From assembly GCA_016782645.1 (NCBI GenBank), contig JADHYC010000001.1:16579-80578 (forward strand): a DNA stretch of 64,000 nucleotides, read 5' to 3'. The notes beneath the pieces were generated by a model. It searched no databases. It saw nothing but the letters and a program-made list of their open reading frames with translations, and was not told where the DNA came from. Below, one piece after another: positions 13,599 through 42,300 of the stretch. The stretch is from Fidelibacterota bacterium (GTDB lineage Bacteria; Fidelibacterota; UBA2242). Numbering within the stretch: the first letter of the stretch is position 1; every line of letters begins with the position of its first letter. Both the position numbers and the translations under genes were made by a program.

Positions 13599-13646
13599 GG
13601 GTTTTCCTCCTTTTTTTATTTTTTTGTTTAATGTTCTCGGTTCATT

Positions 13647-15806: not shown

Positions 15807-15825
15807 TTTTCTATTATATTTTTAC

Positions 15826-21377: not shown

Positions 21378-21512
21378 AAAAGATAGTTAAACACATTTTT
21401 ACAATCAATATTTTGCAGTACTGGAATGAATCGAAAAAATTAAATAAAAGATGGTTGTTTTTAAGATAAATTATAATAATGATTTTGGAGGGAAATTCAT
21501 TTTATACAAAAT

Positions 21513-21871: not shown

Positions 21872-22211
21872 TTGAGAATATTTTTAAGTTTATTTGTAAT
21901 AGGGGTGGTAGTTATTTAAGTTTTAGTTCTTTTTGGAAGTTAGATTTTTCAAGGAGATATTTTCTATTTTTTCACATTCTTCTTAAATATATTGAACATG
22001 CAAAAATTAAAAAAACCATTGAGTTTTCATTTTCATATTTATCACATCTGTGATCTATATTAGAGTTGAGAGATTGAGTATGAATATGGGAAAAGTTAAG
22101 AGAATTTCGGTGTTAATGAGAAAAATTAAAATAGTTTAAAATTTAAACTTCAATAGTATGCAAAATAATTACAATACAATTCTAACTGTATCACTATAGA
22201 ATTATTATATT

Positions 22212-23965: not shown

Positions 23966-24333
23966 TTGTAGATGATGAATCTGCTGCAAGAGATTTGCTC
24001 TATGATATGTTAATAATGGAGAATCATGAGGTTTTTAAAGCAGCAGATGGAAAAGAAGCTCTGGAGATATTTAAAAGAGAAGGTGACATAAAAGTTATCC
24101 TTACAGATTTAGGAATGCCTGGGATTTCAGGATGGGAATTATCGGAACAGATAAAGAAGATTGATCCAAAGACAGTGGTTGTAATGATAACAGGCTGGGG
24201 ATTTCAAATAGATTCTGAGCGGGTGGCAAAATGTGGCATTGACCGAGCTATAGTAAAGCCTTTTCAGGTGGAACAGGTTTTTAATTTGGTAGCGGATTGT
24301 GTGAAAATAAGAAGGCAAAGAGAAAATGAGTAA
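23959..24333 (+). CDS. Single-domain response regulator (CheY-like receiver)
   Basis: MLVVDDESAARDLL...ADGKEALEIF...VILTDLGMPGISGWEL...AIVKPF has the acidic pocket DD, the phospho-acceptor D in LTDLGMP and the conserved K in VKPF. Confidence 0.8.
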   Translation: MLVVDDESAARDLLYDMLIMENHEVFKAADGKEALEIFKREGDIKVILTDLGMPGISGWELSEQIKKIDPKTVVVMITGWGFQIDSERVAKCGIDRAIVKPFQVEQVFNLVADCVKIRRQRENE

Positions 24334-24366: not shown

Positions 24367-26655
24367 ATGAATATGCACAAGTTACCTTTAGTTTTTATAG
24401 TTATTTTTACACTTGGATTAGCATCTCCAGTTAAGGCAGAAAAGTTCAGTCTGGTGAGAGTTCATATTACGTCTCCTCATGATGGTTTTTCATTAATGCA
24501 GATAGGGATTGATCTTGAAGGAGCAAATATAAAGCGAGGGAATTTTTGTGAGATTGTGCTTTCGGAAGAGCAGATTGAAACGCTACAAAAAGCTGATTTC
24601 AAAACAGAAGTGCTGATTGATGACCTAACAAAATATTATCAAGGTCGCTTTAATATGGAATTGATAAAGGGATTTGGTTTAGGCAGTATGGGAGGGTTTT
24701 ATACATTTGGTGAAGTTGTGCAGCAGTTGGAAGAAATGGTAACGCAATATCCGGATCTGATTACACAGAAACAGTGTATAAGTACTACTTATGAAGGGCG
24801 AGATATCTGGGTGGTTAAGATTTCAGATAATCCAAATATTGATGAACCTGATGAACCGGAAGTTTTGTACACTGCTCTTCATCACGCACGAGAGCCACAA
24901 AGCATGATGGTTTTGATTTATTACATGTGGTATTTACTTGAAAACTACGGAGAAGATGAAGCAGTAACATATCTTGTTGACAATCGCGAGCAGTGGTTTA
25001 TCCCAGTTTTTAATCCTGATGGCTATGTCTATAACGAGACTATTGAGCCAAACGGCGGTGGCTTGCATAGAAAGAACCGGTTTCCAAATGGTTGTTCAGG
25101 GACTGAAGTCGGCGTGGATTTAAACAGAAATTACGGTTATATGTGGGGCTATGATAATAGTGGTTCCAGTCCGTTTCCTTGTGATCAAACTTATAGAGGA
25201 ATCGAAGCATTTTCAGAATTGGAAACCCAGGCTATTAAAGATTTTTGTTTGAATCATGATTTTAAATTAGCTTTAAATTATCATACATATTCAAATCTAT
25301 TTATCCACCCTTTTGGTTATGAAGAAAGTATATATCCTCCAGAACCTGATCTTTCTACTTTTAGGGAGTATTTAAATGATATGTCAACATGGAATGGCTA
25401 CCAGGTTGGTACTACATATGAAACAATTGGATATATTACAAATGGTGATGCAAATGACTGGATGTATGGCGAATTGGGGATTTTTACTGCTACTCCGGAA
25501 GTAGGAAATTATTCAGATGGATTCTGGCCATCAACGGATCGCATTTTCCCTTTAGCTGAAGAGAATTTGAATCCAAATCTCTATTTAGCATGGATGGCAG
25601 GTTCCTGTTTTGAAGTTTCACAATTTGATTTAGGTTGTGAAGATTATCCCGATCCTGGAGAGGATCTGAGTATAGTCTTTAGTATTAAGAACAAAGGACT
25701 TCAAAATTCTAATGGAAATGTTTATATAGATATTTATTCGGACAGCCCATATTTGAATTTCGATATGACAATACTAAATCTTGGTGCTATTTCAAGTAGA
25801 GAAGTAGTTGCAAATATTGCTGATCCAATAAATACGTCTCTGGGTATATCTACTCCGATTGGAGAAAATATTAAGATATATTTTAATATTTATGATCTTG
25901 GTGGTTATTTTTTTTCCGATTCTATATCATTTAGAGTTGGCACACCCGCTGTTTTACTTTATGAAGATGCAGAAGGTGAACTTTTCCAATGGAATATTGG
26001 TGATGGATGGGGGAAAAGTGCAGAATATTACTACGGAGACTCCAGTTTGACTGATAGCCCTGATGGAGAATATCCTGATGATTGTAACAATGCTTTGACA
26101 TTGATCCAATCCTTTAATCTGACCGAATTATCCTCTGCTACTTTGCAATATTGGACTAAGTGGGCGGTAGAAGCAAATTGGGATTTTGGACAGGTAGAAA
26201 TTTCTCTAAATGGTGGAAGTACTTGGATACCATTGCGCGCACCGAAAATGTCTTTAGGTACTGGCCAGGGTGCTCAACCAGAAGGGGAGTTTGGATATGA
26301 TGGTGTCCAGAATGATTGGCTTCTGGAAAGTATTTCACTTAGTGAATGGATAGGTAATGAAAACATTAAGATCAGATTTGTTCTCAAAACAGATTCTGCA
26401 GTTACAGATGATGGGTGGTATTTGGATAATATTACAGTATTTGGTTATCCGGTGATTGCATATACTCCCGGTGATGTAAACAATGACGGTGTTATTAATG
26501 TTAGTGATATAGTGAGAATAGTAAATATTATTCTTAGTACTGGTAATGAACCAACAGAGCAGGAATTGTTGGCTGGTGATATTAATAGTGATGGAGATTT
26601 AAATGTTGTTGATATAGTGATGATTGTTATTTTAATTCTCAATCAAGGAGAATAA
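24367..26655 (+). CDS. Secreted M14 zinc carboxypeptidase with an N-terminal pro-domain, a MAM/choice-of-anchor-like beta-sandwich domain and a C-terminal type-I dockerin (two Ca-binding repeats); no T9SS sorting domain
   Basis: Signal peptide. M14 motifs HHAREPQS (HxxE), NPDGY, VDLNRNY and the third His in LNYHTYSNLFIHPFGY. MAM-like ...NGGSTWIPL...DDGWYLDNITVFG. Dockerin GDVNNDGVINVSDIVRIVNIIL...GDINSDGDLNVVDIVMIVILIL. Confidence 0.8.
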   Translation: MNMHKLPLVFIVIFTLGLASPVKAEKFSLVRVHITSPHDGFSLMQIGIDLEGANIKRGNFCEIVLSEEQIETLQKADFKTEVLIDDLTKYYQGRFNMELIKGFGLGSMGGFYTFGEVVQQLEEMVTQYPDLITQKQCISTTYEGRDIWVVKISDNPNIDEPDEPEVLYTALHHAREPQSMMVLIYYMWYLLENYGEDEAVTYLVDNREQWFIPVFNPDGYVYNETIEPNGGGLHRKNRFPNGCSGTEVGVDLNRNYGYMWGYDNSGSSPFPCDQTYRGIEAFSELETQAIKDFCLNHDFKLALNYHTYSNLFIHPFGYEESIYPPEPDLSTFREYLNDMSTWNGYQVGTTYETIGYITNGDANDWMYGELGIFTATPEVGNYSDGFWPSTDRIFPLAEENLNPNLYLAWMAGSCFEVSQFDLGCEDYPDPGEDLSIVFSIKNKGLQNSNGNVYIDIYSDSPYLNFDMTILNLGAISSREVVANIADPINTSLGISTPIGENIKIYFNIYDLGGYFFSDSISFRVGTPAVLLYEDAEGELFQWNIGDGWGKSAEYYYGDSSLTDSPDGEYPDDCNNALTLIQSFNLTELSSATLQYWTKWAVEANWDFGQVEISLNGGSTWIPLRAPKMSLGTGQGAQPEGEFGYDGVQNDWLLESISLSEWIGNENIKIRFVLKTDSAVTDDGWYLDNITVFGYPVIAYTPGDVNNDGVINVSDIVRIVNIILSTGNEPTEQELLAGDINSDGDLNVVDIVMIVILILNQGE

Positions 26656-26933
26656 AGCCTTTTTATATGGCAAATTTGGATGTCTTACTTGCTGAAAGGG
26701 TTGATGTGCCCTAAATCACGAAATTTATATTTTGTTTTTGATTTTTCGAAATAACTTCTTTATTGTGTTTAAAATCACAGTAATTATAGAAGCTTAAAAC
26801 TACTTTTGTCTGAGATGATATATAATGATATTCATAAGAAATGTATAGTAAGTTTCTTCTCCACAGAATGGCAAATCAAGAAGATTTACTCGGATTCTTT
26901 TCTTTTGGGAGTTTTTATAAAAAAAAATATTAA

Positions 26934-29900
26934 ATGAAGGAGGTTTTTATGAAGAAGATTGCGATTATCTTATTTTCTCTATTGTTTGTAGTTAGCATAG
27001 TATTTGGTGCTGATTCAGATTTGACATTAGAGAGAATTCAAAAGAGCAGAATGTTGAAGTCCGCCTTTTCTACAATAGGACAAGAGCAAAAAGTGAGTGT
27101 AGAAGAAAGGGCGATTCCGGGAATGGACAGAAGAGCGCATATAGGAAAAATGCATCCGGGAAAAATGCATTTAGGAAAAACAGGTAATGAGTCTATCCAA
27201 TCACAAAAATGGGTTATGCCAAAGAAGCTTTTTCAAGGTGGGAAGAATAGTCTCTCATCGGGGCTCTTAAAGGCATCTCAGTTTGAGGAATCTGATACTT
27301 TAGTAATTGATTTTATTGAAACCGATACTATTCAGTATATTCCTGGGGATATAATTGTTTTTCAAATTGTATCCTTTGATTCCGTTTTAATCGAACCGTA
27401 TGTTGACAATGGTGACGGTATTTTTAATTCTGATACTGATTTGCTAGTTGAAGGTCCAGATATGGAAGAAGAAATCTGGATTGTTGATGGGGATGAAGAT
27501 GATGAAACCCCACCCGGTGATGGTGTATGGCAAGTCACTTTTAACACGGGTGGACTTGAAGAAGGAAATTTTTTTGGTTTGCAGGGAATGACCCTTTTTA
27601 TTTCCGCTACAGAAAAGACGTCTCAGAATCAAGGACTGGGGGTTTGTTGTATCGAACGTCCTGATGAAAATACGAGTATTTCAGGTAGTGTTATGATTGA
27701 GGGAGACCCGATGGTTCCAGCTGCTGATATGATTGTTTTAGCATTTCAAAAAAATTGGTTTGGAGACGGAGATAATGGTTCACCGGATGTTGGATTTACG
27801 ACAATGACTGATGATACCGGTTACTACCTGATTGAAATTCCGGATACTTTGAGAGGAGAATTTGTAGTATTTGCATTTGATTTTTGGAATTTCTACCCGG
27901 GATATTTTGCCGATCCGGAAATGATGACATTACCCGTAATGGGTGATATACCGGATGTAAACTTTGTACTTAGGGAAGCATCCGAGACTATATATGGTTA
28001 TGTGACAGATGAAAATGATAATCCTGTGCCTGATATTCGGGTATATGCTAATACTGGACCTCATTATGTAGAAGATACTACAGATGTAAGTGGTTACTAC
28101 GTATTGCCTGTTTTCCCAGGTTGGTGGAGAGTAGAAGTTGAAGAAGATGATCTTATTGGTGATTATATGATACCCAATGAACAACATCTGGAAGTATTTG
28201 AGGACGGCGATCATCCTGCAGATTTTATCCTCTATTCCGTAGATGGTTATATTGAAGGTACAGTAACTTATCAAGATGGGAATCCGGCTCAGGGAATTGA
28301 AGTTGAAGCTGGTATCTATCTTGGTTGGGAAGAAGGGGAATATTGGACTTATTCGGAAACTGATGAATTTGGTAACTACACTTTAATGGTTAGTAAAGCT
28401 TTGCAAGGTAGAGAAATTTGGGATAATGGATATGATAGTACATATTCCTGGATTACTTCCTACTGGGTTTCTATCTGGGAAGAAGATGATATTGTTGTTC
28501 CAAGGGAATATTGGGATATCTTTGCAGACACAACAGGTCTTGATTTTACTATTTATATGTCCGATGCTATGTTAAGTGGGTATATTTATGATAGCGTTAC
28601 TGATTTTCCTCTCGGTGAGGCAGGAATTCATGCATTTAGTAAGGATTCAACAGATGGCGCTGTTCCCCCTATGGATGTTTGGGATTGGACTGAGGGAGAT
28701 GGCTATTATGAATTGCCTCTAATTGGTGGGGCTCCACCTGATGGGAAATTATGGAATATTGAAGTTTTTTGGCCACATGCGTGGATACCATCTGTCGTTG
28801 ATACATTAATAGTATTTTCGGGTAATAATTACACACAGGATTATTATATCAAACCGCCTGTAATGCAAGGACTTGTGGAAGGATATGTCTATGACAAAGA
28901 CGGAATTGGGATTAATAATGCCCGTGTTGAACTATATGGCCCTGATTATTTTGAGACATGGACAGATGAAGGTGGTTATTTTAGAATAGAAGACCTTAGA
29001 TTTGGTTGGTATAATGCAACAGCTTATGCTCCTGATTATGAACCCAACACGATATATGATATATGGGTTGGACCAGAACCAGTTTGGCTTAAATTCTGGA
29101 TGGGAAGCGCTGTTGGTAATATCTTTGTAAATGGTGTTGTTACAGATGCTGCTACAAATAATTCAATTCCTGGAGCTCTCGTCTTTGCTTTAGGAGAATT
29201 CTGGATGGCGGTTTCTGGGACTGATTCAACCGGGTATTATGAATTTTGGCTTAAACCTGGATTTTACGATTTCCAGGCAGGTGCAAATGGATTTCTTGCT
29301 GATTATCTTGAGGGTGTTGAAATTAATCAAGACACAACGATTAACTTCGAACTGGGTTATGCGACTATTGCGGACACTGCAAAAGGTAGTGTTGTGGATG
29401 ATGTAGGAATTCCTCTTAGGAATGTATTCATATACTGGGAATCTGATCCTTACCCACCTACATATATTGGTTACACATACACCGATTTTGATGGCAAATA
29501 TGAAATAGGCTTACCATCAGGTGACTATAATGTCATGTTTTGGAAAGAAGGTTTCAATGACGAATATCGATGGCTTGAAAATTTCCCGACCAACCAGTTA
29601 GAAGATCCTGTTGTTATGTGGCCTCATACCTGGGTTTTTGGTCCGGAGATTAAGTCTGTAGGTGATGTTCCCGATGATCACGGTAAGCAAGTTCGCCTAA
29701 CCTGGGAGAGAGCCGAAGGTTTAGAAGGTACTGTGATGGAATATCTAATCTGGAGAGCTATTGAGCCACCATCTGGTCCTGATCCGAATCCAGATCAATA
29801 TCATCCAAACTGGGATTATGTTGCATCAGTTTCCGTCCATCCTGCTATGGGTATGTACCACTATGTAGCACCAACTCTTTATGATAAGGTTGGAGATGAA

Positions 29901-30569
29901 ATTCGCTGGACAGCATTTATGGTTACTGCGATTGGTTGGGATGGATGGTCGTACTGGGATTCAAATATTAAAGCCGGTTTTTCTGAAGATAATCTTCCTC
30001 CGGAAACACCGACCAGTTTGACAGGATCACTCAGTGAAGGTAGTGTTGCTTTATTCTGGGAAGAAGTCGTAAATGAGCCAGTCCAATATTATACTATTTA
30101 CAGAAGACTGGAGAATGAACAGTTCGTTCCTATCGGCTATTCAACAGAACCAGAATATTCAGATACAGAACTGATTGGTTCGGAGGTGTATTATGCCGTA
30201 TCTGCAACTGATTATGGCTTAAATGAATCTCCAAAATCCAGTGAAATTAGTGTTACAATTACTGCTATTGATGGCGGTATTGAGATACCGGATGAGTTTG
30301 CCTTGAAACCGAATTATCCTAATCCGTTCAATCCGGAGACGACAATTGAATTTGCTTTGCCAGAAAATAGTAAAGTAACATTGACCGTCTATAATCTGAA
30401 GGGTCAGTTTATTAGAGAACTTGTTAGATCTGAATATAATGCTGGTTATCAGCGTGTTGTTTGGGATGCACGAGATCAATATGGAAATGCTGTCGGAAGT
30501 GGTGTGTATATTTATACAATAAAAGCGGATAATTTTACACAAACGAGGAAGATGGTTCTACTGAGATGA
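26934..30569 (+). CDS. Large secreted T9SS cargo protein with multiple carboxypeptidase-regulatory-like (CarbopepD_reg / Cna-B-like) beta-sandwich domains, an FN3-like domain and a type-A T9SS C-terminal sorting domain
   Basis: Signal peptide. Repeated GYV.D..G.P...A.V motifs (GYVTDENDNPVPDIRVYANTG, GYVYDKDGIGINNARVELYGP, GVVTDAATNNSIPGALVF, GSVVDDVGIPLRNVFIYWES). The T9SS sorting domain is LKPNYPNPFNPETTIEF...VYNLKGQFIRELV...GVYIYTIKADNFTQTRKMVLLR. N-terminal H/K repeat HIGKMHPGKMHLGKTG. Confidence 0.65.
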   Translation: MKEVFMKKIAIILFSLLFVVSIVFGADSDLTLERIQKSRMLKSAFSTIGQEQKVSVEERAIPGMDRRAHIGKMHPGKMHLGKTGNESIQSQKWVMPKKLFQGGKNSLSSGLLKASQFEESDTLVIDFIETDTIQYIPGDIIVFQIVSFDSVLIEPYVDNGDGIFNSDTDLLVEGPDMEEEIWIVDGDEDDETPPGDGVWQVTFNTGGLEEGNFFGLQGMTLFISATEKTSQNQGLGVCCIERPDENTSISGSVMIEGDPMVPAADMIVLAFQKNWFGDGDNGSPDVGFTTMTDDTGYYLIEIPDTLRGEFVVFAFDFWNFYPGYFADPEMMTLPVMGDIPDVNFVLREASETIYGYVTDENDNPVPDIRVYANTGPHYVEDTTDVSGYYVLPVFPGWWRVEVEEDDLIGDYMIPNEQHLEVFEDGDHPADFILYSVDGYIEGTVTYQDGNPAQGIEVEAGIYLGWEEGEYWTYSETDEFGNYTLMVSKALQGREIWDNGYDSTYSWITSYWVSIWEEDDIVVPREYWDIFADTTGLDFTIYMSDAMLSGYIYDSVTDFPLGEAGIHAFSKDSTDGAVPPMDVWDWTEGDGYYELPLIGGAPPDGKLWNIEVFWPHAWIPSVVDTLIVFSGNNYTQDYYIKPPVMQGLVEGYVYDKDGIGINNARVELYGPDYFETWTDEGGYFRIEDLRFGWYNATAYAPDYEPNTIYDIWVGPEPVWLKFWMGSAVGNIFVNGVVTDAATNNSIPGALVFALGEFWMAVSGTDSTGYYEFWLKPGFYDFQAGANGFLADYLEGVEINQDTTINFELGYATIADTAKGSVVDDVGIPLRNVFIYWESDPYPPTYIGYTYTDFDGKYEIGLPSGDYNVMFWKEGFNDEYRWLENFPTNQLEDPVVMWPHTWVFGPEIKSVGDVPDDHGKQVRLTWERAEGLEGTVMEYLIWRAIEPPSGPDPNPDQYHPNWDYVASVSVHPAMGMYHYVAPTLYDKVGDEIRWTAFMVTAIGWDGWSYWDSNIKAGFSEDNLPPETPTSLTGSLSEGSVALFWEEVVNEPVQYYTIYRRLENEQFVPIGYSTEPEYSDTELIGSEVYYAVSATDYGLNESPKSSEISVTITAIDGGIEIPDEFALKPNYPNPFNPETTIEFALPENSKVTLTVYNLKGQFIRELVRSEYNAGYQRVVWDARDQYGNAVGSGVYIYTIKADNFTQTRKMVLLR

Positions 30570-30593
30570 TTTATCGCTGAACAATATGTGAAT

Positions 30594-30621
30594 AAAGGGC
30601 AGGGAGACCTGCCCTTTTTAT
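30594..30621 (+). terminator. Rho-independent terminator after the 26934..30569 gene
   Basis: aaGGGCAGGGagaCCTGCCCtttttatt is a GC stem followed by a T-tract. Confidence 0.6.
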
Positions 30622-30796
30622 TGTGTGGATTTTAAAAATAATATGATTTATTAATTTACAATTGTATATAGTCTTATCTATTCTATCATGAGTGAAATCT
30701 TTAAAAATGTAATCTGGGTCAATAAATTAAGTAGTGCTAATTTTTCATCTTGTAAAACAGAATGAGATTTTATATTTTTGCGTCTGTTTAAGTTTA

Positions 30797-32377
30797 ATGG
30801 TGAAGATGAAAAATAGTATTACAAAGATGATATTTGTTACGAGTCTATTTCTTTTATGGGCTATTAATATCTATAGTTTTCAGGATGTGAGCCTGGTAAG
30901 AATAAAACTTTCTGAGCCTTCTGATATGACAATTCTGGTGAAGATGGGAATAGATATTGCTCGATTTAAAGCTCCTGGTGAGGTTGAAGCCTGGGTAACA
31001 GAAGTTGAATTTGAAAAAATTTCAACGGAGGGCTTTGATATAGAGTATATTCCGGATCTTGCAAAGATTTACGCCGATAGTCTTGAGAAAGCCACGCGTA
31101 ATACAAGTAACCCAATGGATGATTATCACAACTATGATGAGTTAACGACCTTTTTAAATAATACTGTCGATGATCATCCCAATATATGTCAGCTAATATC
31201 AATTGGAACAAGTGTTCAAGGAAGAGAACTTTGGTTCATGAAGATTACTGATAATCCAACAGTTGAAGAGTCGGAGCCAGAATTCAAATATATTGCAAAT
31301 ATGCATGGGAATGAACCTGTTGGCAGAGAGTTATGTCTTTATTTGATAGATTGGTTAACAGATAATTATGGGACTAATACCAGAGCGACATATCTTGTAG
31401 ATAATGCTGAAATCTGGATTATGCCATCAATGAATCCTGATGGTTTTGAACTTCACCAGCGGTACAATGTACAAGGTGTTGATCTTAATAGAGATTTTCC
31501 AGATAGAATTAGTGACCCTAATAATACCACTGATGGAAGAGCACCCGAAACTCAAGCGGTCATGAACTGGGCTTTTCAACATTCTCATATCCTTTCTGCA
31601 AATTTTCATACAGGAGCGCTTGTAACAAATTATCCTTATGATAGTAACGAAAGTGGAAATAATGTATATACAGCCTGTCCAGATGATGCGCTTTTTATTG
31701 ATGTTTCTTTATCTTATTCAATTCACAATTCCCCTATGTATAATAGTCCTTATTTTGATCAGGGGATAACTAATGGAGCAGATTGGTACGTTATATATGG
31801 TGGTATGCAGGATTGGAATTATGAGTGGCAGGGCGACTTTGAAGTAACTATAGAGCAATCAAATACTTTCTGGCCTCCGGCATCTCAACTTCCATCATAC
31901 TGGGCTGATAATCAGGAATCAATGATCAGTTATATAGAAAGTATGTTCAGGGGGATAAAGGGAATAGTAACTGATGCCTCAACCGGACTTCCTGTTGCAG
32001 CGTCAATAGAAATTGTGGGAATAGATCACAAAGTGTATACTGACCCGGATGTTGGTGATTATTACCGGATGGTTATGCCCGGAACTTATGATTTATTGGT
32101 TGAAACAGACGGATATGAGCCCCAGATAATTGAGAATGTTATAGTGAATGAGCAAGAACAAACTATCGTTGATATTCAATTTGGTATTACATGTATTCCT
32201 GGTGATGTGAATAATGACGGTGAGATTAATATTGCCGATATTGTAAAAATAGTTCAATTTATTTTGATACTGGATATACCAGATGATTATGAATTTTGTG
32301 CTGCGGATTGGAATTTTGATGGTGTTATTAATGTGCAGGATATTGTCGGAATTGTTCAGTATATTTTGAACCAATAA
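30797..32377 (+). CDS. Second secreted M14 zinc carboxypeptidase (paralog of 24367..26655) with a CarbopepD_reg-like domain and a C-terminal type-I dockerin; no T9SS sorting domain
   Basis: M14 motifs ANMHGNEPVGRE (HxxE), NPDGFE, VDLNRDFPD and ANFHTGALVTNYPYD. Dockerin GDVNNDGEINIADIVKIVQFIL...ADWNFDGVINVQDIVGIVQYIL. The ORF opens at 30734; the likely start is ATG 30797 or 30806 just before the signal peptide MKNSITKMIFVTSLFLLWAINIYSF. Confidence 0.8.
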   Translation: MVKMKNSITKMIFVTSLFLLWAINIYSFQDVSLVRIKLSEPSDMTILVKMGIDIARFKAPGEVEAWVTEVEFEKISTEGFDIEYIPDLAKIYADSLEKATRNTSNPMDDYHNYDELTTFLNNTVDDHPNICQLISIGTSVQGRELWFMKITDNPTVEESEPEFKYIANMHGNEPVGRELCLYLIDWLTDNYGTNTRATYLVDNAEIWIMPSMNPDGFELHQRYNVQGVDLNRDFPDRISDPNNTTDGRAPETQAVMNWAFQHSHILSANFHTGALVTNYPYDSNESGNNVYTACPDDALFIDVSLSYSIHNSPMYNSPYFDQGITNGADWYVIYGGMQDWNYEWQGDFEVTIEQSNTFWPPASQLPSYWADNQESMISYIESMFRGIKGIVTDASTGLPVAASIEIVGIDHKVYTDPDVGDYYRMVMPGTYDLLVETDGYEPQIIENVIVNEQEQTIVDIQFGITCIPGDVNNDGEINIADIVKIVQFILILDIPDDYEFCAADWNFDGVINVQDIVGIVQYILNQ

Positions 32378-32415
32378 TCATGTTATGTGAAATTCAGAAT
32401 CCCGGTAAAAGGTAA

Positions 32416-32703
32416 AAAATAACGAATAGAGAAATCTTTAAAAAGATTGTTCGGCTACTTAAAAATCAAGCAGTGAATAAGGTAGCTATTTTTAGTTCTT
32501 TTGTGAGAAGAGAAGAAGAACCAGGAAGCGATATAGATATTATCGTGGAATTTTCAGAAAGAAAAAGTCTTCATTAACTTGTAGGGATAGAAAGAGAGTT
32601 GTCTGAAGTACTGGGAATAAAAGTGGATTTGTTAACGGAAAAATCTATTAGTCCATACTTGATTGATACGATAAGGGAAGAGATGGAAGTAATTTACGGA
32701 TGA
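32416..32703 (+). pseudogene. Decayed MNT-type nucleotidyltransferase antitoxin gene (no start codon, in-frame TAA at 32575)
   Basis: ...VAIFSSFVRREEEPGSDIDIIVEFSERKSLH*LVGIERELSEVLGIKVDLLTEKSISPYLIDTIREEMEVIYG carries the nucleotidyltransferase GS..D.D motifs. It is interrupted by a stop and lacks an ATG after the upstream TAA at 32413. Confidence 0.55.
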
Positions 32704-32885
32704 AAAAGGACGATTTCATATATTTAAGGCACATGTTAGATGCCATTTCTAGAATGTAAAAGTATATTCACGGCACAGAATACGAAAGCTTTATGGAGAA
32801 TCATCTTATACAGGACGGAGTAATAAGGCAGGTATTATGTTCTGGCTTAGTCTGTTGCCGAGAAAAGAGAAGGAGTAGTCTGTGA
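32700..32885 (+). pseudogene. Decayed HepT-like (DUF86) toxin gene, partner of the MNT remnant (ATGA overlap; in-frame TAA after codon 19; 3' end truncated or diverged)
   Basis: MKKDDFIYLRHMLDAISRM*KYIHGTEYESFMENHLIQDGVIRQ... matches HepT N-terminal helices (cf. DFIYLRHILDAI...FEEFLENELIQDAVIRNLEIIGEA). It then diverges and runs into the next gene's start. Confidence 0.5.
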
Positions 32886-33621: not shown

Positions 33622-36600
33622 ATGAGAAAAAGAATTTTTCATCTGATAACACTTGTTATTCTTTTATGCTTTACAGTGGAAATGTCATTTGCTTCCGCTG
33701 AACTTGTTGTTAAAGGGGATTCTAAGCTTATTATTGAACTGGATCAAGTTTCCAGTGATGAAACAGCAGTTGAGCTTATAGAAAATAGTTATCAAAAAGT
33801 CGCTATGATTTATAAGTTTTCAAAAATCCAAAGTTTTAATGTTGTATCTGAAAAGGGGATATTTACGGAGATTATAATTCCAAAAGCTCATTATATTGGC
33901 AACATCGGTACACCAAAACTCCCGGCACTTAAAAAATTGATTGAAATCCCTTTTGGTGCTAAAGTATCTATTAATGTAAAAAGTTATTCAACAATTGAAT
34001 ACAAGTTAAGTAATTGTGGTATCAACAATCCACTCCTACCTGTTCAACCTTCACTACCTAAGAATATTGATCCTCGTTCCGTTGATTTTGTATATGATAT
34101 TGATTCATATACGGTTGATGAATTCAGACAATATGAAATAGCTACTGTCGAAGAGTTAGGTGTGCTCCGTGGTGTTCGTTTTGCCCGGGTAGTTGTTGCC
34201 CCTGTTCGTTATAACCCTGTAAAGGGAGTTATTAAAGTATATAATAATATTGAGGTTGAGATTAACTTTTCAGGCAGCGATATTGATCTGACTGAATACA
34301 TTAAAGCTTCTACTTATTCACCGTATTTTGAAGCAATATACAGAAAGATTATTAATTATAAAGAAAGAGAACACGGTTATCCAGATCACCCGGATTTAAC
34401 TAAATATCCTGTAAAATATTTAATTGTTGCCGATAGAATGTTTGAAAGTCAATTAGAACCTTTTATCGAATGGAAATCACAGAAAGGATTTACAGTAATT
34501 GTCACTTATACTGATGTTATTGGTACTTCATATAGTAATATTCAAACATGGATTCATAATCAATATAATTCTGGAACTCCTGCAGATCCGGCTCCAAGTT
34601 TCGTACTATTTGTTGGAGACACACCGCAAATTCCTGCAGAAACAGGTTCTTCCAGTGGAAAAGCCACAGATTTGTACTATTGTAGTGTAGACGGTGACTA
34701 TTTTCCTGAAATGTATTATGGAAGATTTTCTGCGACTACCGCCGATCAACTGCAACCTCAGGTTGACAGGACACTATATTATGAGAAATATCAATTCTCT
34801 GATCCATCATTTTTAGATAATGTTACATTGATTGCAGGAGTAGATCCGTATTGGAATCCAAATGTTGGTCAACCGACAGTTTTATACGGTACAGAAAATT
34901 ACTTTAATGTATTGCATGGGTTTAATGATGTTCATGTATATCTTGACTCTTATTCCGGATGCTACGAAACAATTAATGATGGGATCAGCTTAATCAATTA
35001 CACCGCACATGGCAGTCAAACATCCTGGGGAAATCCCGGTATGTCACAATCTGACGTTAATGCATTAACAAATGATGGAAAATATCCATTGGCTATTGGT
35101 AACTGCTGTTTATCAGGGGATTTTGGCTATTCGGAATGCTTTGGCGAAACATGGCTAAGAGCAACAAATAATACAACTGGTGAGCCAACTGGTGCAATAG
35201 GATATATTGCATCAGCTCCTTCTTCTTATTGGTTTGAAGATTTTTATTGGGCAGTAGGCGCTTTTCCAATAATAGGAGACAATAATGGCTATGTCCCTCC
35301 TTATGATTCGACTTCATGGGGTGCCTATGATGCTCCGTTTGTAAGTGATTATGTTACCCAGGATGCTTTAAACTTCGTTGGTAATCTTGCGGTTACAGAG
35401 GCTGATATTCAGGGATATCCAACTCATGTTACAGGTTCAAGTGCACTCTATTACTGGCAAGCATATAATCTGCTTGGAGATCCGTCAGTCGTTGTATATA
35501 TGACTCAGGGTGAAAATAATAATGTAAGTTTTGACGGTTTATTACCAATTGGTTCAACAAGTTTTACCGTTAATGCTGAGCCTGGCTCCTATGTAGGTAT
35601 TTCGATGAATGGAGTTTTACATGGTGCTGGTTTAATAGGTGAATATGGGACGGCTAATATACCGATAACCCCGTTTACTGTTGCAGGCACCGCTGATATT
35701 ATTGTAACAAAACCTCAGTATAAGCCAGTTTTTACTACTGTATTAGTTGCTACACCTGCAGTGGTTGGTATTAATCCTGATTCAATTTCTATTAATGTTT
35801 CAACAGAAGTAACCATTTCTGTTTATGAAGAAGATGGAACTACTCCCATTTCAGATGTAGATGTCTGGATTGAAGGATGGGGTGTTGATTCTGAGATTTT
35901 AAGTGGTACGACGAGTGGTTTGGGTGAATTAAGTTTTTCAATAACCCCTCCTTATGGAGAACGACTCAGAGTGATTGGTAAAAGACCGGTTGACAATTAC
36001 TTGCTTTTTACCAAATATATATATGTGACCGATGGTATAGATTTAACAAATGCAAATATTACTCCTAGCGTTGCATCAATTGGGCTTTTTGGTTTATTAA
36101 CACCCTATTATGAAGGACTGATTACTTCTACATGTGATGAAGCTGAAACAGTACTTTTTGCAAGAGGCTGTGGTGTGGATACATCAGTTGTGGCAACAGA
36201 GGTAAATGTAATTCCCGATGAAGTTGGTATAATTTCCGCCGCAATAGCAAAAAGCGGATATAATGTGTATGAAGAAGATATATTAGTTGAAACTGTATAT
36301 GGAACACTAAGCGGAATTGTTCGCGATGAATCCGAACAGGGAGTTCCGGAAGCAGCAATAAAAGGATTTTTACAATCAAATCCGGAAACACCTGCATTTA
36401 CTGCTATTACAAATTCGCTAGGCCAATTTACAATAGAAGGCGAACTGGAAATCGGTTATTACCAGGTTGAGATAGAAAAGTTTGGTTTAGTGCCATATTC
36501 AGAGGAACATTTTCTTCAGTATGGAGCAAACAGCTGGTTCCTTGATTTAACTGGTGCACCCAGCGGCACTGTTTCCGGCACTGTTACCGAAGCAGGCACG

Positions 36601-39075
36601 GGAGTAGCTTTAAATGCCACGGTGAATATTTACAGAGAAGAAAATGAAGAGTGGATTTTACATACTTCAGTAAATACGGTAGCAACAAGCGGTGGAATTT
36701 ATTCTGTTGATCTGCCTTATTATACCTATCTATTTAAAACTACTTCAGCTCATCATGTCCCGAAAACCTTAACAGTTCTTGTAAACAGTGCTTCTCAGAC
36801 AGTTGATTTTGCGCTTGATCCCACAGCTGGAAATATTCTTGTTATTGATGATGATTCAGGGAAAAGAAATATAAACAAAGTAGTTGACGCTGACGGAAAT
36901 TTGATTTCCGAAGAAACTGAAGTTGTTTTTTCGGAAAAGGGACAGTCAGCTAATGAAATTTCTCAAGCATTAATAAGTCTGGGATATTATGTAACTATTG
37001 AAAATGCCGGTTCAAGCAATCCTGATACATGGCTGGATTATGATTTAGTTATTTCATCTTCCGGAGCAAATAGTGACCCTGTCAATGATGATACTTATCG
37101 TACAAATCTTAAACAATATGTAGCAGAAGGCGGAAAACTGCTTATAGAAGGTGGTGAGATCGGCTATGATATGTGTAGTTATTCAGGAGACACAGAATTT
37201 GCAACAAACGTGCTGCATGTAAGTGATTGGAAAGCGGATAATGCCGGTGCTTTTAACCAGGAACTTCCCGATCATGCGATTTCTTCAATTCCAAATAGTA
37301 TTCCTGTATGTCTATACATTGATTATAATAGTTACGGAGACGAAGACGCGTGTACGCCTACTTCGGATGCTTATATTGTTTATAGTAATAATGAAAATTC
37401 AGCACACGCCGGAATCATTGTTTATGATGATAATGAAGTAGATATTAGCGCCCAGACAGTATTTTATACCTTTGCATATCCAAAATTATCTACTGCTGAA
37501 AACAGGGAAGATCTGCTTGAAAATACAGTGCTTTATTTACTTACACCTGAAATACAGGGTTCCGGTGTCTTAACCGGTACTGTTGACCTTATTGATTCTG
37601 ATAATGATGGCGGTGCTATAGTGGAAATTCTCGGAACAAATTTCGAAACAACAACAGATGTAAGCGGAGATTATGTGATCAATGATATTTATCCGGGAAC
37701 TTTTTCAGTAAAGGCATCTAAATTCGGATATACAGTCCAATATATAACAGAAGTGGTAATTGCCAATGATAGTACTACTGAAAATGTTGATTTCTTTTTA
37801 CAGCAGCTGCTTGTGGTCTTCTTTGATGATTTTGAAAATGGGACTTCTCAATGGAATTTGGAAGAGTCATGGGGATTGACAGAGAGTAGTTATTTTTCTG
37901 CTACTCATAGTTTAACAGATAGTCCGGAAGGAAATTATATAGGTAATTCTGCAGGTTGGTCAGCGTCAATGGCAGTACCGATTAATATGGAGGAATGTAC
38001 ACAGGGATTATTGAGGTTCTGGCATAAATATGAATTAGGAGCCGGAGATATGGCGAATGTGGAAGTGAGTGGAGACGGATCGTTTTGGGAAATTGTAAAA
38101 ACTTTTTCCGGAATACAGGAGGATTGGGAACAGGTAAATCTAAATTTATACTCTTATACAGGTTATGACTTTTTATGGGTAAGATTCAGGATGTCTGCCA
38201 ATGCAATGGATAATCTTGACGGATGGTATATTGATAATGTTGAGGTGATGCTTGATGCTGGTTCAGCTTTGGTCAAAGGGGATATTAATCAAGATGGGAA
38301 TATTGATGTTGCGGATATAGTCAAAGAGGTAAATTTTATTCTTAATACTGGTGAGCCGCCAACTCCGGTAGAGTTCTGGTGTGCCGATATGAATGGAGAT
38401 CACCAGATCAATGTTCTTGATATTGTTGAATTAGTAAATATCATTCTGAATGAAAAAAGTATGGCCAAAAGAGCCGGTAAATCCGCTACAAAATGTGAGA
38501 TTATTCGCAGAGGAGATGTGCTTTATTATAATTCGGATGGTGATGTAGCTGGCTTAGAACTCCACTTAATTGGAGGCAATAAAAACTCTATTACAGTTTT
38601 TCCTGAATTAGTAATCGAAAGTGCAGTTTCACAGAAAAATGATCAGACAGTTGTTCTGCTGTATAGTATGGATGAGAAAGTGCTGCCTGCAGGTGAGAAT
38701 GCACTGATGACTATTTCAGAAGGAATGAAAGTAAAATCGGTTATTGTATCAGATATTTTAGGGAAAAAAGTTGAAACTTATGTTAGAGAATTACCAACCC
38801 AATTTAGTTTATATCAGAATTATCCGAATCCCTTTAACCCGACTACGAAGATTGCTTTTGATATACCAAAATCCACTTATGTAACATTAACGATTTATGA
38901 TATTTTGGGAAGGACAATTAAAGTGCTTATAGATCAGGAATTTAAATCCGGAAGTTACGAGGCTATCTGGGACGGGAGAAATAGATATGGTGTTCAAGTA
39001 GCGTCCGGGATTTATTTCTATTCGATTGAGTCTACCGATTTTAACAAGATAAAAAAGATGATTCTTGTCAGGTAG
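33622..39075 (+). CDS. Peptidase C25 (gingipain-like) family cysteine protease, 1817 aa, carrying Ig/CarbopepD-like domains, a MAM-like domain, a type-I dockerin, a cohesin-like module and a T9SS C-terminal sorting domain
   Basis: C25 hallmarks FVLFVGDTPQIP, KATDLYYCSVDGDYFPEMYYGRFS and the catalytic His/Cys region YTAHGSQTSWGNPG...PLAIGNCCLSGDF. MAM-like ...DGWYIDNVEVM. Dockerin GDINQDGNIDVADIVKEVNFIL...ADMNGDHQINVLDIVELVNIIL. T9SS sorting domain LYQNYPNPFNPTTKIAF...IYDILGRTIKVL...GIYFYSIESTDFNKIKKMILVR. Confidence 0.8.
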   Translation: MRKRIFHLITLVILLCFTVEMSFASAELVVKGDSKLIIELDQVSSDETAVELIENSYQKVAMIYKFSKIQSFNVVSEKGIFTEIIIPKAHYIGNIGTPKLPALKKLIEIPFGAKVSINVKSYSTIEYKLSNCGINNPLLPVQPSLPKNIDPRSVDFVYDIDSYTVDEFRQYEIATVEELGVLRGVRFARVVVAPVRYNPVKGVIKVYNNIEVEINFSGSDIDLTEYIKASTYSPYFEAIYRKIINYKEREHGYPDHPDLTKYPVKYLIVADRMFESQLEPFIEWKSQKGFTVIVTYTDVIGTSYSNIQTWIHNQYNSGTPADPAPSFVLFVGDTPQIPAETGSSSGKATDLYYCSVDGDYFPEMYYGRFSATTADQLQPQVDRTLYYEKYQFSDPSFLDNVTLIAGVDPYWNPNVGQPTVLYGTENYFNVLHGFNDVHVYLDSYSGCYETINDGISLINYTAHGSQTSWGNPGMSQSDVNALTNDGKYPLAIGNCCLSGDFGYSECFGETWLRATNNTTGEPTGAIGYIASAPSSYWFEDFYWAVGAFPIIGDNNGYVPPYDSTSWGAYDAPFVSDYVTQDALNFVGNLAVTEADIQGYPTHVTGSSALYYWQAYNLLGDPSVVVYMTQGENNNVSFDGLLPIGSTSFTVNAEPGSYVGISMNGVLHGAGLIGEYGTANIPITPFTVAGTADIIVTKPQYKPVFTTVLVATPAVVGINPDSISINVSTEVTISVYEEDGTTPISDVDVWIEGWGVDSEILSGTTSGLGELSFSITPPYGERLRVIGKRPVDNYLLFTKYIYVTDGIDLTNANITPSVASIGLFGLLTPYYEGLITSTCDEAETVLFARGCGVDTSVVATEVNVIPDEVGIISAAIAKSGYNVYEEDILVETVYGTLSGIVRDESEQGVPEAAIKGFLQSNPETPAFTAITNSLGQFTIEGELEIGYYQVEIEKFGLVPYSEEHFLQYGANSWFLDLTGAPSGTVSGTVTEAGTGVALNATVNIYREENEEWILHTSVNTVATSGGIYSVDLPYYTYLFKTTSAHHVPKTLTVLVNSASQTVDFALDPTAGNILVIDDDSGKRNINKVVDADGNLISEETEVVFSEKGQSANEISQALISLGYYVTIENAGSSNPDTWLDYDLVISSSGANSDPVNDDTYRTNLKQYVAEGGKLLIEGGEIGYDMCSYSGDTEFATNVLHVSDWKADNAGAFNQELPDHAISSIPNSIPVCLYIDYNSYGDEDACTPTSDAYIVYSNNENSAHAGIIVYDDNEVDISAQTVFYTFAYPKLSTAENREDLLENTVLYLLTPEIQGSGVLTGTVDLIDSDNDGGAIVEILGTNFETTTDVSGDYVINDIYPGTFSVKASKFGYTVQYITEVVIANDSTTENVDFFLQQLLVVFFDDFENGTSQWNLEESWGLTESSYFSATHSLTDSPEGNYIGNSAGWSASMAVPINMEECTQGLLRFWHKYELGAGDMANVEVSGDGSFWEIVKTFSGIQEDWEQVNLNLYSYTGYDFLWVRFRMSANAMDNLDGWYIDNVEVMLDAGSALVKGDINQDGNIDVADIVKEVNFILNTGEPPTPVEFWCADMNGDHQINVLDIVELVNIILNEKSMAKRAGKSATKCEIIRRGDVLYYNSDGDVAGLELHLIGGNKNSITVFPELVIESAVSQKNDQTVVLLYSMDEKVLPAGENALMTISEGMKVKSVIVSDILGKKVETYVRELPTQFSLYQNYPNPFNPTTKIAFDIPKSTYVTLTIYDILGRTIKVLIDQEFKSGSYEAIWDGRNRYGVQVASGIYFYSIESTDFNKIKKMILVR

Positions 39076-39341: not shown

Positions 39342-42300
39342 ATGTGTAAGAGGTCTTTGTTAGTTGTATTTTTAATTTTTGTTTTGTTGTTGAGTTTTGG
39401 CTTTGCGGAGAATAGTGTTTCCAATAATGTGGTTAAGAAGTCAGCAGAAGTTGAGATTGTTCTTAACAAATATTTCGGCGGAGAAGAGCTTACTATTAGT
39501 GAAAAACAGATGATTGCTCCTTTCATTGAAATTAATCATAATCATCTAACTAGAAACCTTAGATCAAAAGAGGTTGTTTTAAGTGAGGACTTCTCAGGTG
39601 GAGTTTTACCTACTGGATGGACCGTTTTGGAAGGTTCTTTAAGTAATGTTGATTGGGATTTCAGTGCTCTAGATGCTACATGTGATTGTAGTAGTTACGG
39701 TGATTATGCACAGGATACATTGATTTCTCCAACAATTGATTGTTCATCATATTTAGGTCTTCGATTAAATTTTTACCAAGATTATGATGCATATTCTTAT
39801 GGAGATGTTACGACTCAAGTATTAATTTCAAATGATGGTGGAGCAACATGGATTGTTCTTTTGGATTATACAGGTATAGATCATTTAGCTGAAAACGTAG
39901 GTCCGGTTGATATTAGTACTTATGCCGATGGAGAGGCAAATGTAAAAATTGCATTTGCATATGAATCTGATTTTGGATACCATTGGACTATTGATGATAT
40001 AGTTATTGATACTCCTCCTACCGAGCCTATTATGGTTCTCAGCACCTATTCCATTGATTTTGGGAATGTTGGAGCGGAGGTTGGAAAAGAAACTGTTTCT
40101 GAGAAAGTGTATGTATCTAACAATGGCGGTGGAACGTTAAATATCACTGGTTTTACTTTAAGCTCTGCTGACCTGTCTGTTGATTCTACTTCTTTAACTG
40201 TAGAACCCGGTGTTACCGATTCTTTTGTTGTTTCTTTTGCTTCTTCCACAGCAGGTGTTTTCAATGGAAAAGTTACAATTGCAAGTAATGATGCTGTAAG
40301 CACAGATACAATAGCAGTTACAGCCACGGTAATACCAGCTGGTTATGTAGTAGAAAGTTTTGAAGATGACTTTCCGCCTCAAGGCTGGGATAGAGTTGGT
40401 TATACTTCCAGTTACTTAGATGGGTGGTATGAAAATACTTCTTCTTCTTATGTCTATGATGGTTCAAAATCTGTAAAAGCTAAAGGTCAAAATAGCTGGT
40501 TATTTACTCCTAAGCTTACCATTTCTACTGGTGATTTTATCACCTTTTACTATCGTTCAGAAAGTTCGAGTTACCCGGCAGGTTTGAAACTCAGAATATC
40601 AACAGGCTCGGATCAGATGGATACAACAGGATATACAGCAGTTCTATGGGAAGATGATAATGTTGATGAAACTGAATATCAGAAAGTTACATACACTTTT
40701 GATGCCACTTATGATGGACAGGATGTTTACCTTGCTTTTCAGAGAAATTGGGCTACTTCTAATTATTACTATACTTATGTTGATTATGTCACTCATCCAC
40801 CAATCTACTATCCCGAAGTTTCTTCAATTCTAATATCAGAGATTGTGGTTACCCCAACAGCAGGAGAGTTTGTTGAGATATATAATTCTAATATATATGA
40901 AGTCGATTTATCCAATTATTACTTAACAGATGCAACCTATGCAAGTGGTGGAGCCTACTATTACAATATCGTAACTGGTTCCAATTATGGTGGTGGTAGC
41001 TCCGCGGATTTCCATGCTCGGTTCCCGGATGGTGCTACTATTGCTGCGGAAGCATATCAGACTATTTCAATGGCAGGAAGCGAAGATTTCCTTGCTGAAT
41101 ATGGTGTAGATCCTGATTATGAGTTATATGAAGATGGTGCATCTGCCGATGCTATTCCCGATATGCGTGAGGCAGTAGCTGGAAGTATTAATAATCAGGG
41201 TGGATTGACCAATGGCGATGAAGTTGTTATTTTGTACTATTGGGATGGTGAAAGCGATCTGGTTATGGATTCCGATTATCTACTGTGGGATGATGGTGCA
41301 GAGGTACCTAATGAAGCTGTTGATAAGACTGGAGTAACTATTGACGGACCTGATGCCGATACAGATGTTTCAGCTTATTTAGATGATACTCCTATCGCAA
41401 GTCAGGATTTTGGAGTAAGCCCGGGCTACGGCTTTTCACTTCACAGAATAGATTATACCGAGGGTCTTGAAGCACAGGCAGATGGTAATGGAATTACAGG
41501 GAGCGATGAAACGAGCGAGAACACGAGTGCAACTTTTGCTATAAGCCTTCCTACTCCGGGAGCAGATGCGCAGCTTGATATATATGAACCTAATGATATT
41601 CTTAGTGCTGCAACTGCTATTACAGTACCGGATACGATAGTCGGACCGGAAATTAATCCTGATGGCGATGTTGATTGGTTCTCTTTTGCGGCTGATTCAG
41701 GTAGTTATTTAATCCTTGATTTATTTATTGATGGCTTCTCAAGTTTGGATGGCGAAATTGCCCTATTTTATAGTGATAGTGTAAAATTGGAATCCGCTGA
41801 CTCGTATGGTAGTGGTAGTGATGAAGAAATAGAATATTTTGTTGATTCCACAGGCACCTATTATGTTGCTGTTGCTCATTATTCTGATTTAAAAGATGAT
41901 CGTGCTTATACAGGAGCATACGCATTAGGAGTAAGTGTGGAAACAGAGTATGATCCCTGTGCGGATTATCCTGATCTAAATGAGCCGAATAATGACGTTG
42001 CAAATGCAACAGTAGTTTATGCAGATGATTCTCTTGCAGCAGCACTTTGTCCGACTGAAGACCTTGATTATTACTCTATCACAATTTCTGATGATGGATT
42101 ACTCTATGCAGAAACTCATCCAGGCGCAGCAGGAGACTATGGTACTGACACATATATGTACTTATTAGGCTCAGATGGAACTACTGTGTTAGATGAAGAT
42201 GACGATGCTGGCGATGGATTTACATCCTATGTCGAAGCGGAAGTTACTGCCGGTACGTATTATGTTCTTGTTGAAGTTTCTTCATATGCTGCTGGAGATG

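Follow-up and report, generated by a model that had tools for sequence, protein, structure and literature searches.

We analysed a 64,000-nucleotide stretch of DNA (contig JADHYC010000001.1; hereafter the window, in whose coordinates all positions are given) from an uncultured marine Marinimicrobia bacterium (Neomarinimicrobiota/Fidelibacterota). Our results suggest that two secreted zinc carboxypeptidases encoded in this window, M14-A and M14-B, which both end in a dockerin, are held non-covalently on cohesins that are anchored through a type IX secretion system (T9SS), in a cellulosome-like, cell-bound proteolytic assemblage. We consider this reading reasonably likely. The interval of 24367-32377 holds three genes, namely M14-A, a T9SS cargo gene and M14-B. 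As the original prediction stated, the two M14 enzymes flank the cargo gene, and each has a Sec signal and a terminal dockerin while lacking a T9SS signal. The organism is apparent from M14-A, which is 100% identical to a protein of a Candidatus Marinimicrobia metagenome-assembled genome (MAG) at NCBI.

M14-A (24367..26655, + strand) is a 762-aa, secreted, carboxypeptidase-T-like (M14A) zinc carboxypeptidase. It comprises, from the N-terminus, a signal peptide, a pro-segment-like N-domain, the catalytic domain, a beta-rich middle region, a MAM-like domain and the terminal dockerin. Pfam recognised Peptidase_M14 (PF00246) at residues 118-402 (E 9e-66), an InhA-like MAM domain at residues 571-691 (window 26077-26439) and Dockerin_1 (PF00404) at residues 701-753, the latter with 36.3 bits versus a cut-off of 22.9. 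Judged by eye, the signal peptide (MNMHKLPLVFIVIFTLGLASPVKA/EK) has the look of a Sec type-I signal, with no lipobox Cys. Members of M14A are recognised by the HxxE...H Zn ligands together with the equivalents of Arg127, Asn144, Arg145, Tyr248 and Glu270. All of these are present in M14-A, whose catalytic motifs read HHARE...DLNRN...H306...E378, and the columns of H173/E176, R235, N253/R254, H306, Y356 and E378 vary little or not at all among 52 homologs. The best match in the Protein Data Bank (PDB) is carboxypeptidase T (CPT), with 39% identity, a template-modelling (TM) score of 0.88 in Foldseek and a phmmer E-value of 4e-59.

The N-domain of M14-A (24445..24648, + strand; aa 27-94) has a beta-alpha-beta-beta-alpha-beta(-alpha) topology and resembles the activation segment of procarboxypeptidases. 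An AlphaFold2 (AF2) model of residues 1-420, built from a 52-sequence alignment, had a predicted local distance difference test score (pLDDT) of 90.6, with a low-confidence linker at aa 95-105. Foldseek aligned this model with the zymogens 1nsa, 1aye, 2boa and TAFI (procarboxypeptidases B, A2, A4) over 405-424 columns, activation domains included. The global root-mean-square deviation was ~11 Å, which indicates that the fold agrees while the modelled placement of the N-domain differs. The phmmer alignments of M14-A with procarboxypeptidase B and TAFI start at query residues 72-82, within the pro region. In contrast, Pfam Propep_M14 gave no match in the isolated N-terminal segments, even at E<=10. 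An N-terminal pro-segment, which the original prediction had proposed to look for, is thus matched in fold and topology but not by the Pfam family. In the model, M14-A carries a pro-segment-like N-domain, and zymogen behaviour is plausible.

M14-B (30797..32377, + strand) is a secreted, carboxypeptidase-D-like (M14B) zinc carboxypeptidase, in which a pro-like N-domain, a catalytic domain and a transthyretin-like domain are followed by the terminal dockerin. It was called by program as a GTG open reading frame (ORF) at 30734-32377. More probably, translation does not begin at this GTG but at the ATG at 30797, in line with the 526 aa of the database protein P0200, or at the ATG at 30806 (MKNSITK...). 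In the numbering of the 30734 ORF, Pfam placed Peptidase_M14 (PF00246) at 138-395 (E 1.7e-66), the transthyretin-like CarboxypepD_reg (PF13620) at 408-482 and Dockerin_1 at 489-545 (35.6 bits versus the cut-off of 22.9). Its signal peptide (MKNSITKMIFVTSLFLLWAINIYS/FQ) also looked like Sec type I by eye, again with no lipobox Cys. Subfamily M14B is characterised by the Zn motif HGNE and by a CarboxypepD_reg domain that comes directly after the catalytic one. M14-B has both, and its motifs are HGNE, RYN...DLNRD, FHTG and a catalytic Glu in IEQ. The alignment with domain II of duck carboxypeptidase D (CPD) spans the transthyretin-like domain (E 9e-92); CPM and CPN also match, and metazoan CPDs rank among the best database matches of M14-B. 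Furthermore, M14-B has an Asp 11 residues past the third Zn ligand (FHTGALVTNYPYD, aligned to LHGGSLVVNYPFD of CPD-II). This Asp, which is Asp192 of CPD-II, presumably sets the preference for C-terminal Arg/Lys, and M14-B is predicted to prefer basic C-termini.

Judging from their sequences, both carboxypeptidases look catalytically intact. The Zn ligands and the substrate-binding Arg/Asn, which the original prediction described as kept, occur as motifs in both enzymes and are near-invariant across the 52 M14-A homologs. The two enzymes had further been described as diverged paralogs rather than a recent duplication. Diverged they are, with 28% identity over the N-domain and catalytic domain and with N-termini that align with each other, but their relation is more distant than that wording implies: the cores are anciently diverged representatives of separate subfamilies, M14A and M14B, and not close paralogs. 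By comparison, the dockerins of M14-A and M14-B share 56-59% identity, and the four dockerins of the window share 44-59% pairwise identity. Dockerins so much more alike than the M14 cores that carry them fit a shared class of partner, and the window dockerins constitute a homogeneous, genome-specific family of modules.

A type I-like dockerin consists of two tandem segments of ~22 residues, each with a 12-residue Ca loop (D-x-N/D-x-D-G-...-D) and a helix, and this is what both carboxypeptidases have. The M14-A dockerin (26467..26652, + strand; aa 701-762) has the Ca-binding loops DVNNDGVINVSD and DINSDGDLNVVD, with 13 residues from the second loop to the end of the protein. The M14-B dockerin (32198..32374, + strand) has the loops DVNNDGEINIAD and DWNFDGVINVQD, with 11 residues to the end. 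The claim that the proteins stop after the second dockerin repeat is in line with the 10-13 residues that remain past the second loop. T9SS type-A cargo, on its part, is recognised by a beta-sandwich sorting domain of ~80 aa at the extreme C-terminus (C-terminal domain, CTD). Such a domain was found in the flanked cargo gene and in two large downstream proteins, a C25 peptidase and a giant surface protein. It is absent from M14-A and M14-B, for which the Pfam and NCBIfam searches gave no match to Por_Secre_tail (TIGR04183).

Both large T9SS proteins lie downstream of the interval of 24367-32377 and have a spacer of 120-160 residues between dockerin and CTD. The giant T9SS surface protein (39342..47570, + strand; 2742 aa) contains LTD, PPC, fn3, MAM-like and CarboxypepD_reg domains, and its C-terminus runs from a dockerin (nt 46680-46838) through a cohesin (nt 46839-47309) to a T9SS CTD (nt 47316-47558), all on the + strand. 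This cohesin module (46839..47309), supported by profile, AF2 and Foldseek, is the one that we propose as a receptor for the M14-A and M14-B dockerins. When a profile of 33 homologs was compared with the PDB, the top 27 matches were all cohesins (E 2.4e-7 to 0.035), among them ScaB (2.4e-7), NagJ of Clostridium perfringens (1.7e-6) and 2xdh of A. fulgidus. The AF2 model of the module (pLDDT 88.3) is an all-beta sandwich. Its top 43 Foldseek matches in the PDB were likewise all cohesins, with 2jh2 as the best (E 2.9e-9, TM 0.79), in agreement with the nine-stranded beta-sandwich of jelly-roll topology that defines cohesins homologous to those of scaffoldins. Profile and model thus agree in identifying the spacer of the giant protein as a true cohesin.

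The C25 gingipain-like cysteine peptidase (33622..39075, + strand; 1817 aa) has a C25 propeptide, catalytic and Ig domains, CarboxypepD_reg repeats and a MAM-like region. At its C-terminus, on the same strand, a dockerin (nt 38275-38445) is followed by a cohesin-like module (about nt 38455-38811) and this in turn by a T9SS CTD (nt 38821-39063). The spacer of 118 residues matched the cohesin hidden Markov model (HMM) locally with an E-value of 0.0018, and hhalign gave a probability of 93.8% (E 1.8e-7). From these matches, the spacer is probably a shortened cohesin-like module.

The combination of cohesin and CTD is not confined to this window. Word-indexed searching with a cohesin segment of 150 aa gave no homologs, but an exhaustive HMMER search succeeded and found 79 cluster representatives of the cohesin. 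These included 42 proteins with dockerin, cohesin and CTD in that order (Doc-Coh-CTD), 16 short proteins of ~250 aa with a signal peptide, cohesin and CTD, and 2 with cohesin and CTD (Coh-CTD). The cohesin abuts the T9SS CTD in 60 of the 79 representatives, with a median gap of 2 residues from the cohesin envelope to the NYPNPF motif of the CTD, and a few relatives have 2-5 cohesins. Named members of the set belong to Marinimicrobia/Neomarinimicrobiota and KSB1, and their annotation goes no further than "T9SS type A sorting domain-containing protein" or "dockerin type I domain-containing protein". The short Coh-CTD genes sit amid housekeeping genes, and one cluster of them was read on 23 contigs. 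Our literature search for Marinimicrobia in combination with dockerins found nothing relevant.

To compare the C-termini of related enzymes, the top 120 homolog clusters of each carboxypeptidase were surveyed, 240 listed clusters altogether. A terminal dockerin without CTD occurred in 121 clusters, a CTD without dockerin in 62, and both together in none. For M14-A, 82 clusters were dockerin-terminal without CTD (729-769 aa, median of 10 residues past the second loop) and, where the organism was named, came mostly from Marinimicrobia; another 28 had a CTD without dockerin (811-1306 aa), the named organisms being Ignavibacteria or an unclassified bacterium, and no cluster had both. For M14-B, 39 clusters were dockerin-terminal, 34 CTD-terminal and 47 neither, metazoan CPD included, with again none carrying both. 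Individual loci alternate in the same way between dockerin and CTD. A scan of genome contigs with M14-B yielded only 9 loci, in which the window's own genome appeared only as a contig end (L009). According to the original prediction, homologs with a CTD after the dockerin would imply truncation or an assembly error in this genome. None of the 240 listed clusters has this arrangement, so the terminal dockerin is real and conserved. On the sequence evidence, the same enzyme core takes either a CTD or a dockerin, which amounts to a choice of anchor. Replacement of the CTD by a dockerin on orthologous cores implies an equivalent role in localisation.

Other exoenzymes of the phylum have the same ending. 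On another Marinimicrobia contig (L011), the genes on either side of an M14-A ortholog, at 8730-10001 and 15831-18095, encode a PAD_porph protein that resembles peptidyl-arginine/agmatine deiminases and a metallophosphatase (Metallophos) that resembles purple acid phosphatases, and both of these are dockerin-terminal. Terminal dockerins are thus general among exoenzymes of the phylum. A different ending was observed in some M14-A homologs of ~1100 aa (P0081, P0095, P0100, P0104, P0113), which have neither a dockerin nor an NYPNPF-type CTD at the end. They share another conserved C-terminus (…GWNLIGS…PGKGYWVKV..NGKL…), possibly a further type of sorting domain.

The module preceding the dockerin also recurs. 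M14-A, the C25 protein (about aa 1410-1545) and a Neomarinimicrobiota homolog of M14-B (L002) all have a MAM-like (InhA-like_MAM) domain directly ahead of the dockerin. In M36 peptidase families of NCBIfam, InhA-like_MAM is also found ahead of rhombosortase, myxosortase and T9SS sorting signals. The MAM-like domain may be a pre-anchor spacer module that is paired with varied anchors.

The gene between the two carboxypeptidases encodes a T9SS type-A cargo protein (26934..30569, + strand; 1211 aa) with CarboxypepD_reg-like repeats, fn3-like domains and a CTD at aa 1128-1208 (nt 30315-30557). The CTD scored 41.5 bits with TIGR04183 (cut-off 23) and 29.2 with Pfam Por_Secre_tail (PF18962; cut-off 27). 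No dockerin was found in this protein. As a cohesin partner it was ruled out, since the local HMM match had E=2 and overlapped the CTD, and the hhalign probability was 1.7%. The earlier suggestion of docking to a T9SS cargo partner has gained concrete cohesin-bearing candidates downstream (33622-39075 and 39342-47570), but it does not apply to the flanked cargo itself. The pair of M14-A and CarboxypepD_reg-rich T9SS cargo is kept in a related genome (L010), where the M14-A ortholog is 58% and the cargo 30% identical. In L010, 8 kb downstream of this pair, a gene at 20555-22207 encodes a POT/PTR2-family peptide transporter, which fits peptide harvesting.

In the proposed complex, the dockerins of M14-A and M14-B would plug into the cohesins directly ahead of the CTD, in the giant protein and, probably, in the C25 peptidase. 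Elsewhere in the phylum, the ~250-aa proteins with signal peptide, cohesin and CTD would serve as cohesin hosts. After T9SS export and removal of the CTD, the cohesin would become the module nearest to the anchor point. Proteins of the Doc-Coh-CTD type could both accept and donate, and would in this way build chains, with the dockerin-only enzymes as the leaves and the short Coh-CTD proteins as the roots. The C25 endopeptidase would cut proteins and the carboxypeptidases would trim the products for uptake, where the specificity of the CPT-like M14-A is probably broader than the predicted basic preference of M14-B. Dockerin binding to the cohesins of the window, a surface location of the carboxypeptidases and cooperation among the C25 and M14 peptidases are what we infer from these architectures. 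MAGs of Marinimicrobia encode extracellular peptidases, and gingipain (C25) is among the types commonly found across these MAGs (PMC8359207). The set of C25, CPD-like and CPT-like enzymes agrees with the picture of Marinimicrobia as degraders that employ peptidases outside the cell (PMC8359207).

Several points weigh against this assemblage. The T9SS gene that is truly flanked by the carboxypeptidases has no detectable cohesin. The module of the C25 protein appears truncated and its sequence support is weak. The cohesin of the giant protein matched Pfam Cohesin (PF00963) with an E-value of 1.1e-3 and 19.6 bits, under the gathering cut-off of 24.1; a divergent cohesin with a sub-threshold score explains the missing annotation. 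The gene linkage between M14-A and a cohesin seen here is not general: no cohesin was found in any of 12 loci (L001-L012), three of which (L010-L012) hold M14-A orthologs, and in L012 the ortholog is surrounded by housekeeping genes. Moreover, the window revealed no path by which proteins without a CTD could pass the outer membrane, for many dockerins outside cellulosomes no partner has been demonstrated, and the carboxypeptidases could alternatively be periplasmic.

Among the alternatives, separate export survives best. The enzymes would leave the cell by the type II secretion system (T2SS), by another general route or by vesicles or lysis, and dock only outside the cell, as happens in the cellulosomes of Gram-positive bacteria, such that the dockerin is purely a means of attachment. 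Assembly outside the cell is the manner in which all characterised cohesin-dockerin systems are known to form. In addition, T9SS demands a CTD on its substrates, which it exports as folded proteins (PMC9251779), and we found no report of piggyback or hitchhiker export by T9SS in the literature. Against separate export, neither T2SS nor T9SS machinery genes were found within the 64-kb window, unrelated families of dockerin-terminal, CTD-less enzymes would each need a structural T2SS signal of their own, and sharing a Ca-containing periplasm would make assembly before export hard to avoid. We consider separate export possible, though somewhat unlikely.

The route that we prefer, tentatively and with considerable doubt, is that the dockerin acts in trans as a signal for both secretion and anchoring. 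The carboxypeptidases would fold in the periplasm, dock on a cohesin-CTD carrier and hitchhike through T9SS. Sterically, the ~250-aa proteins with signal peptide, cohesin and CTD would be the easiest carriers, and the enzymes would end up tethered to an anchored cohesin. Such co-export is attractive because of the shared Ca-containing periplasm, the swap of CTD and dockerin in unrelated families and the small Coh-CTD carriers. Hitchhiking would explain why orthologous cores have a CTD or a dockerin but never both, as well as the loss of the CTD in unrelated enzyme families.

A third explanation, which we regard as improbable, is that the dockerins are orphan Ca-binding repeats of the EF-hand type without a cohesin partner, with a role in stabilisation or in glycan or envelope binding, or as relics, and that the enzymes are perhaps periplasmic peptide trimmers. 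Non-cellulosomal dockerins are described as widespread and mostly uncharacterised (Peer et al., 2009, as cited in PMC8542988), and the cohesin-less flanked cargo and the unconserved synteny of the cohesin genes would suit this explanation. Yet, genuine cohesins occur in the same neighbourhood and throughout the phylum, most of them abutting a T9SS CTD. Furthermore, the dockerin substitutes for the CTD on orthologous cores, and the dockerins of this genome are far more alike than their host enzymes. Finally, truncation of formerly CTD-ended genes by assembly error, frameshift or pseudogenisation has practically nothing in its favour beyond the CTDs of neighbouring genes and was rejected, since the stop position is kept in 82 + 39 independent listed homolog clusters from many samples, the identical protein occurs on several contigs, and no CTD-like coding remnant was found in any frame downstream of the M14-A and M14-B stops.

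The dockerin-tagged, T9SS-anchored assemblage that we propose can be compared with several known systems. In Candidatus Stygibacter of the Cloacimonadota, a cellulosome-like complex of dockerin-terminal S8 and C25 peptidases with a CTD-bearing cohesin scaffoldin was inferred from MAGs (Williams et al., 2021; PMC8542988). Like our organism, Stygibacter belongs to an uncultured lineage with T9SS-type CTDs, its signal-peptide enzymes end in dockerins, its cohesin protein has a CTD, and the inference comes from MAGs only. However, Stygibacter has one non-catalytic scaffoldin of 3,755 aa with tandem cohesins and carbohydrate-binding modules (CBMs), whereas here a single cohesin is part of a Doc-Coh-CTD cassette in catalytic or adhesin proteins. 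The ~250-aa Coh-CTD proteins, the absence of CBMs from what we saw and the M14 carboxypeptidases as cargo also differ from Stygibacter. How the dockerin enzymes of Stygibacter cross the outer membrane is not taken up in PMC8542988. New in comparison with Stygibacter are the phylum, the single-cohesin cassette borne by enzymes and adhesins together with the minimal Coh-CTD proteins, and the mutual exclusion of dockerin and CTD on orthologous M14 cores.

The best structure and sequence matches to the window cohesin are the NagJ, NagH and NanJ cohesin-dockerin pairs from toxin/glycosidase complexes of Clostridium perfringens (2jh2, 2ozn, 2vo8). These are likewise non-cellulosomal, with modules borne by the enzymes themselves and no dedicated scaffoldin. 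They differ in that C. perfringens is Gram-positive, without an outer membrane or T9SS, and in that the enzymes are glycoside hydrolases instead of peptidases. With clostridial cellulosomes, the present system shares Ca-dependent type-I-like dockerins with duplicated, near-symmetric repeats, beta-sandwich cohesins and anchoring to the cell. In contrast, the anchor here is a T9SS CTD and not SLH or sortase, and the presumed diderm host faces an export problem that Gram-positive cellulosome makers do not. Cellulosomes are defined by a non-catalytic, multi-cohesin scaffoldin with a CBM and by carbohydrate-active enzymes. Instead, we found single cohesins and peptidases, and neither a CBM nor a carbohydrate-active enzyme in the window. 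Hence, the system may work like a cellulosome, but by definition it is none.

The enzymes themselves have known relatives as well. CPT is an enzyme of Thermoactinomyces vulgaris, to which M14-A adds the MAM-like and dockerin modules. Compared with metazoan carboxypeptidases D, M and N, M14-B adds a dockerin and an N-terminal pro-like domain; to our knowledge, metazoan M14B enzymes lack such a pro-like domain. The carboxypeptidase CPG70 of Porphyromonas gingivalis is specific for basic residues and trims the products of gingipains, and we know of no cohesins in P. gingivalis. CPG70 (PG0232) bears a T9SS CTD and occurs with a pro form (PMC4560394). What we propose here is similar to this pairing, at the cell surface, of C25 gingipains with a pro-form M14 metallocarboxypeptidase in a T9SS-dependent system (PMC4560394). 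However, CPG70 has its own CTD and is attached covalently, whereas the window carboxypeptidases lack a CTD, bear a dockerin and would be attached in trans.

With regard to the wider locus, the window has a low GC content of ~36%, and its genes are almost all on the + strand. GC skew was > 0 in all 2-kb bins of window 1-64000, and Pfam-matched ORFs of at least 120 aa were on the + strand save three (12366-17298). Skew and strand bias together fit a leading-strand segment, far from origin and terminus. Directly upstream of M14-A, three genes on the same strand encode a histidine kinase with PAS (22212-23399), a small protein of the PAS type (23522-23965) and a response regulator that consists of a receiver alone (23959-24333); the stop of the regulator is 34 bp ahead of the M14-A start. 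The short gap and shared strand make co-transcription or local regulation of M14-A possible. This kinase/regulator arrangement is not kept in L010; the upstream genes there encode a GntR regulator and a TonB-dependent receptor. The T9SS cargo gene is directly succeeded by a GC-rich hairpin with a T-run behind it (30596-30620; aaagggcagggagacctgcccttttt). This element resembles an intrinsic terminator, and M14-B is therefore probably transcribed from a promoter of its own.

A decayed toxin-antitoxin pair (32400-32830) separates M14-B from the gene that follows. Its MNT-type nucleotidyltransferase frame is broken by a stop codon that separates AIFSSFVRREEEPGSDIDIIVEFSERKSLH from LVGIERELSEVLGIKVDLL, and the HepT/DUF86-like fragment that follows is likewise broken, with DDFIYLRHMLDAISRM before the stop and KYIHGTEYESF after it. 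A predicted lipoprotein of 222 aa with the lipobox LWGC is encoded at 32882-33550, between M14-B and the C25 gene. It had no Pfam or NCBIfam matches, and its composition suggests a small, beta-rich outer-membrane protein. Likely secreted proteins are also encoded at 8033-12158 (a 343-aa ORF without family, a 726-aa protein with Big_7 and fn3, and a 272-aa LamG-like protein), and a separate 568-aa ORF without Pfam match lies at 61211-62917. No dockerin motif or cohesin HMM match was found in any of the proteins of these two regions.

If true, a T9SS-anchored cohesin-dockerin system would show how Marinimicrobia keep peptidases, which are expensive to make, attached to the cell rather than let them drift off into seawater, and would carry the principle of the cellulosome over to the breakdown of proteins by diderm bacteria. 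Dozens of entries annotated as "T9SS type A sorting domain-containing protein" hide an unrecognised cohesin, and predictions of an extracellular versus periplasmic location for the dockerin-terminal enzymes of these and related T9SS-bearing lineages need to be revisited. The mutual exclusion of dockerin and CTD provides a directly testable hypothesis on T9SS export of non-covalent complexes. Hitchhiking of the carboxypeptidases on cohesin-CTD carriers, if true, would be the first case of hitchhiker export by a type IX secretion system.

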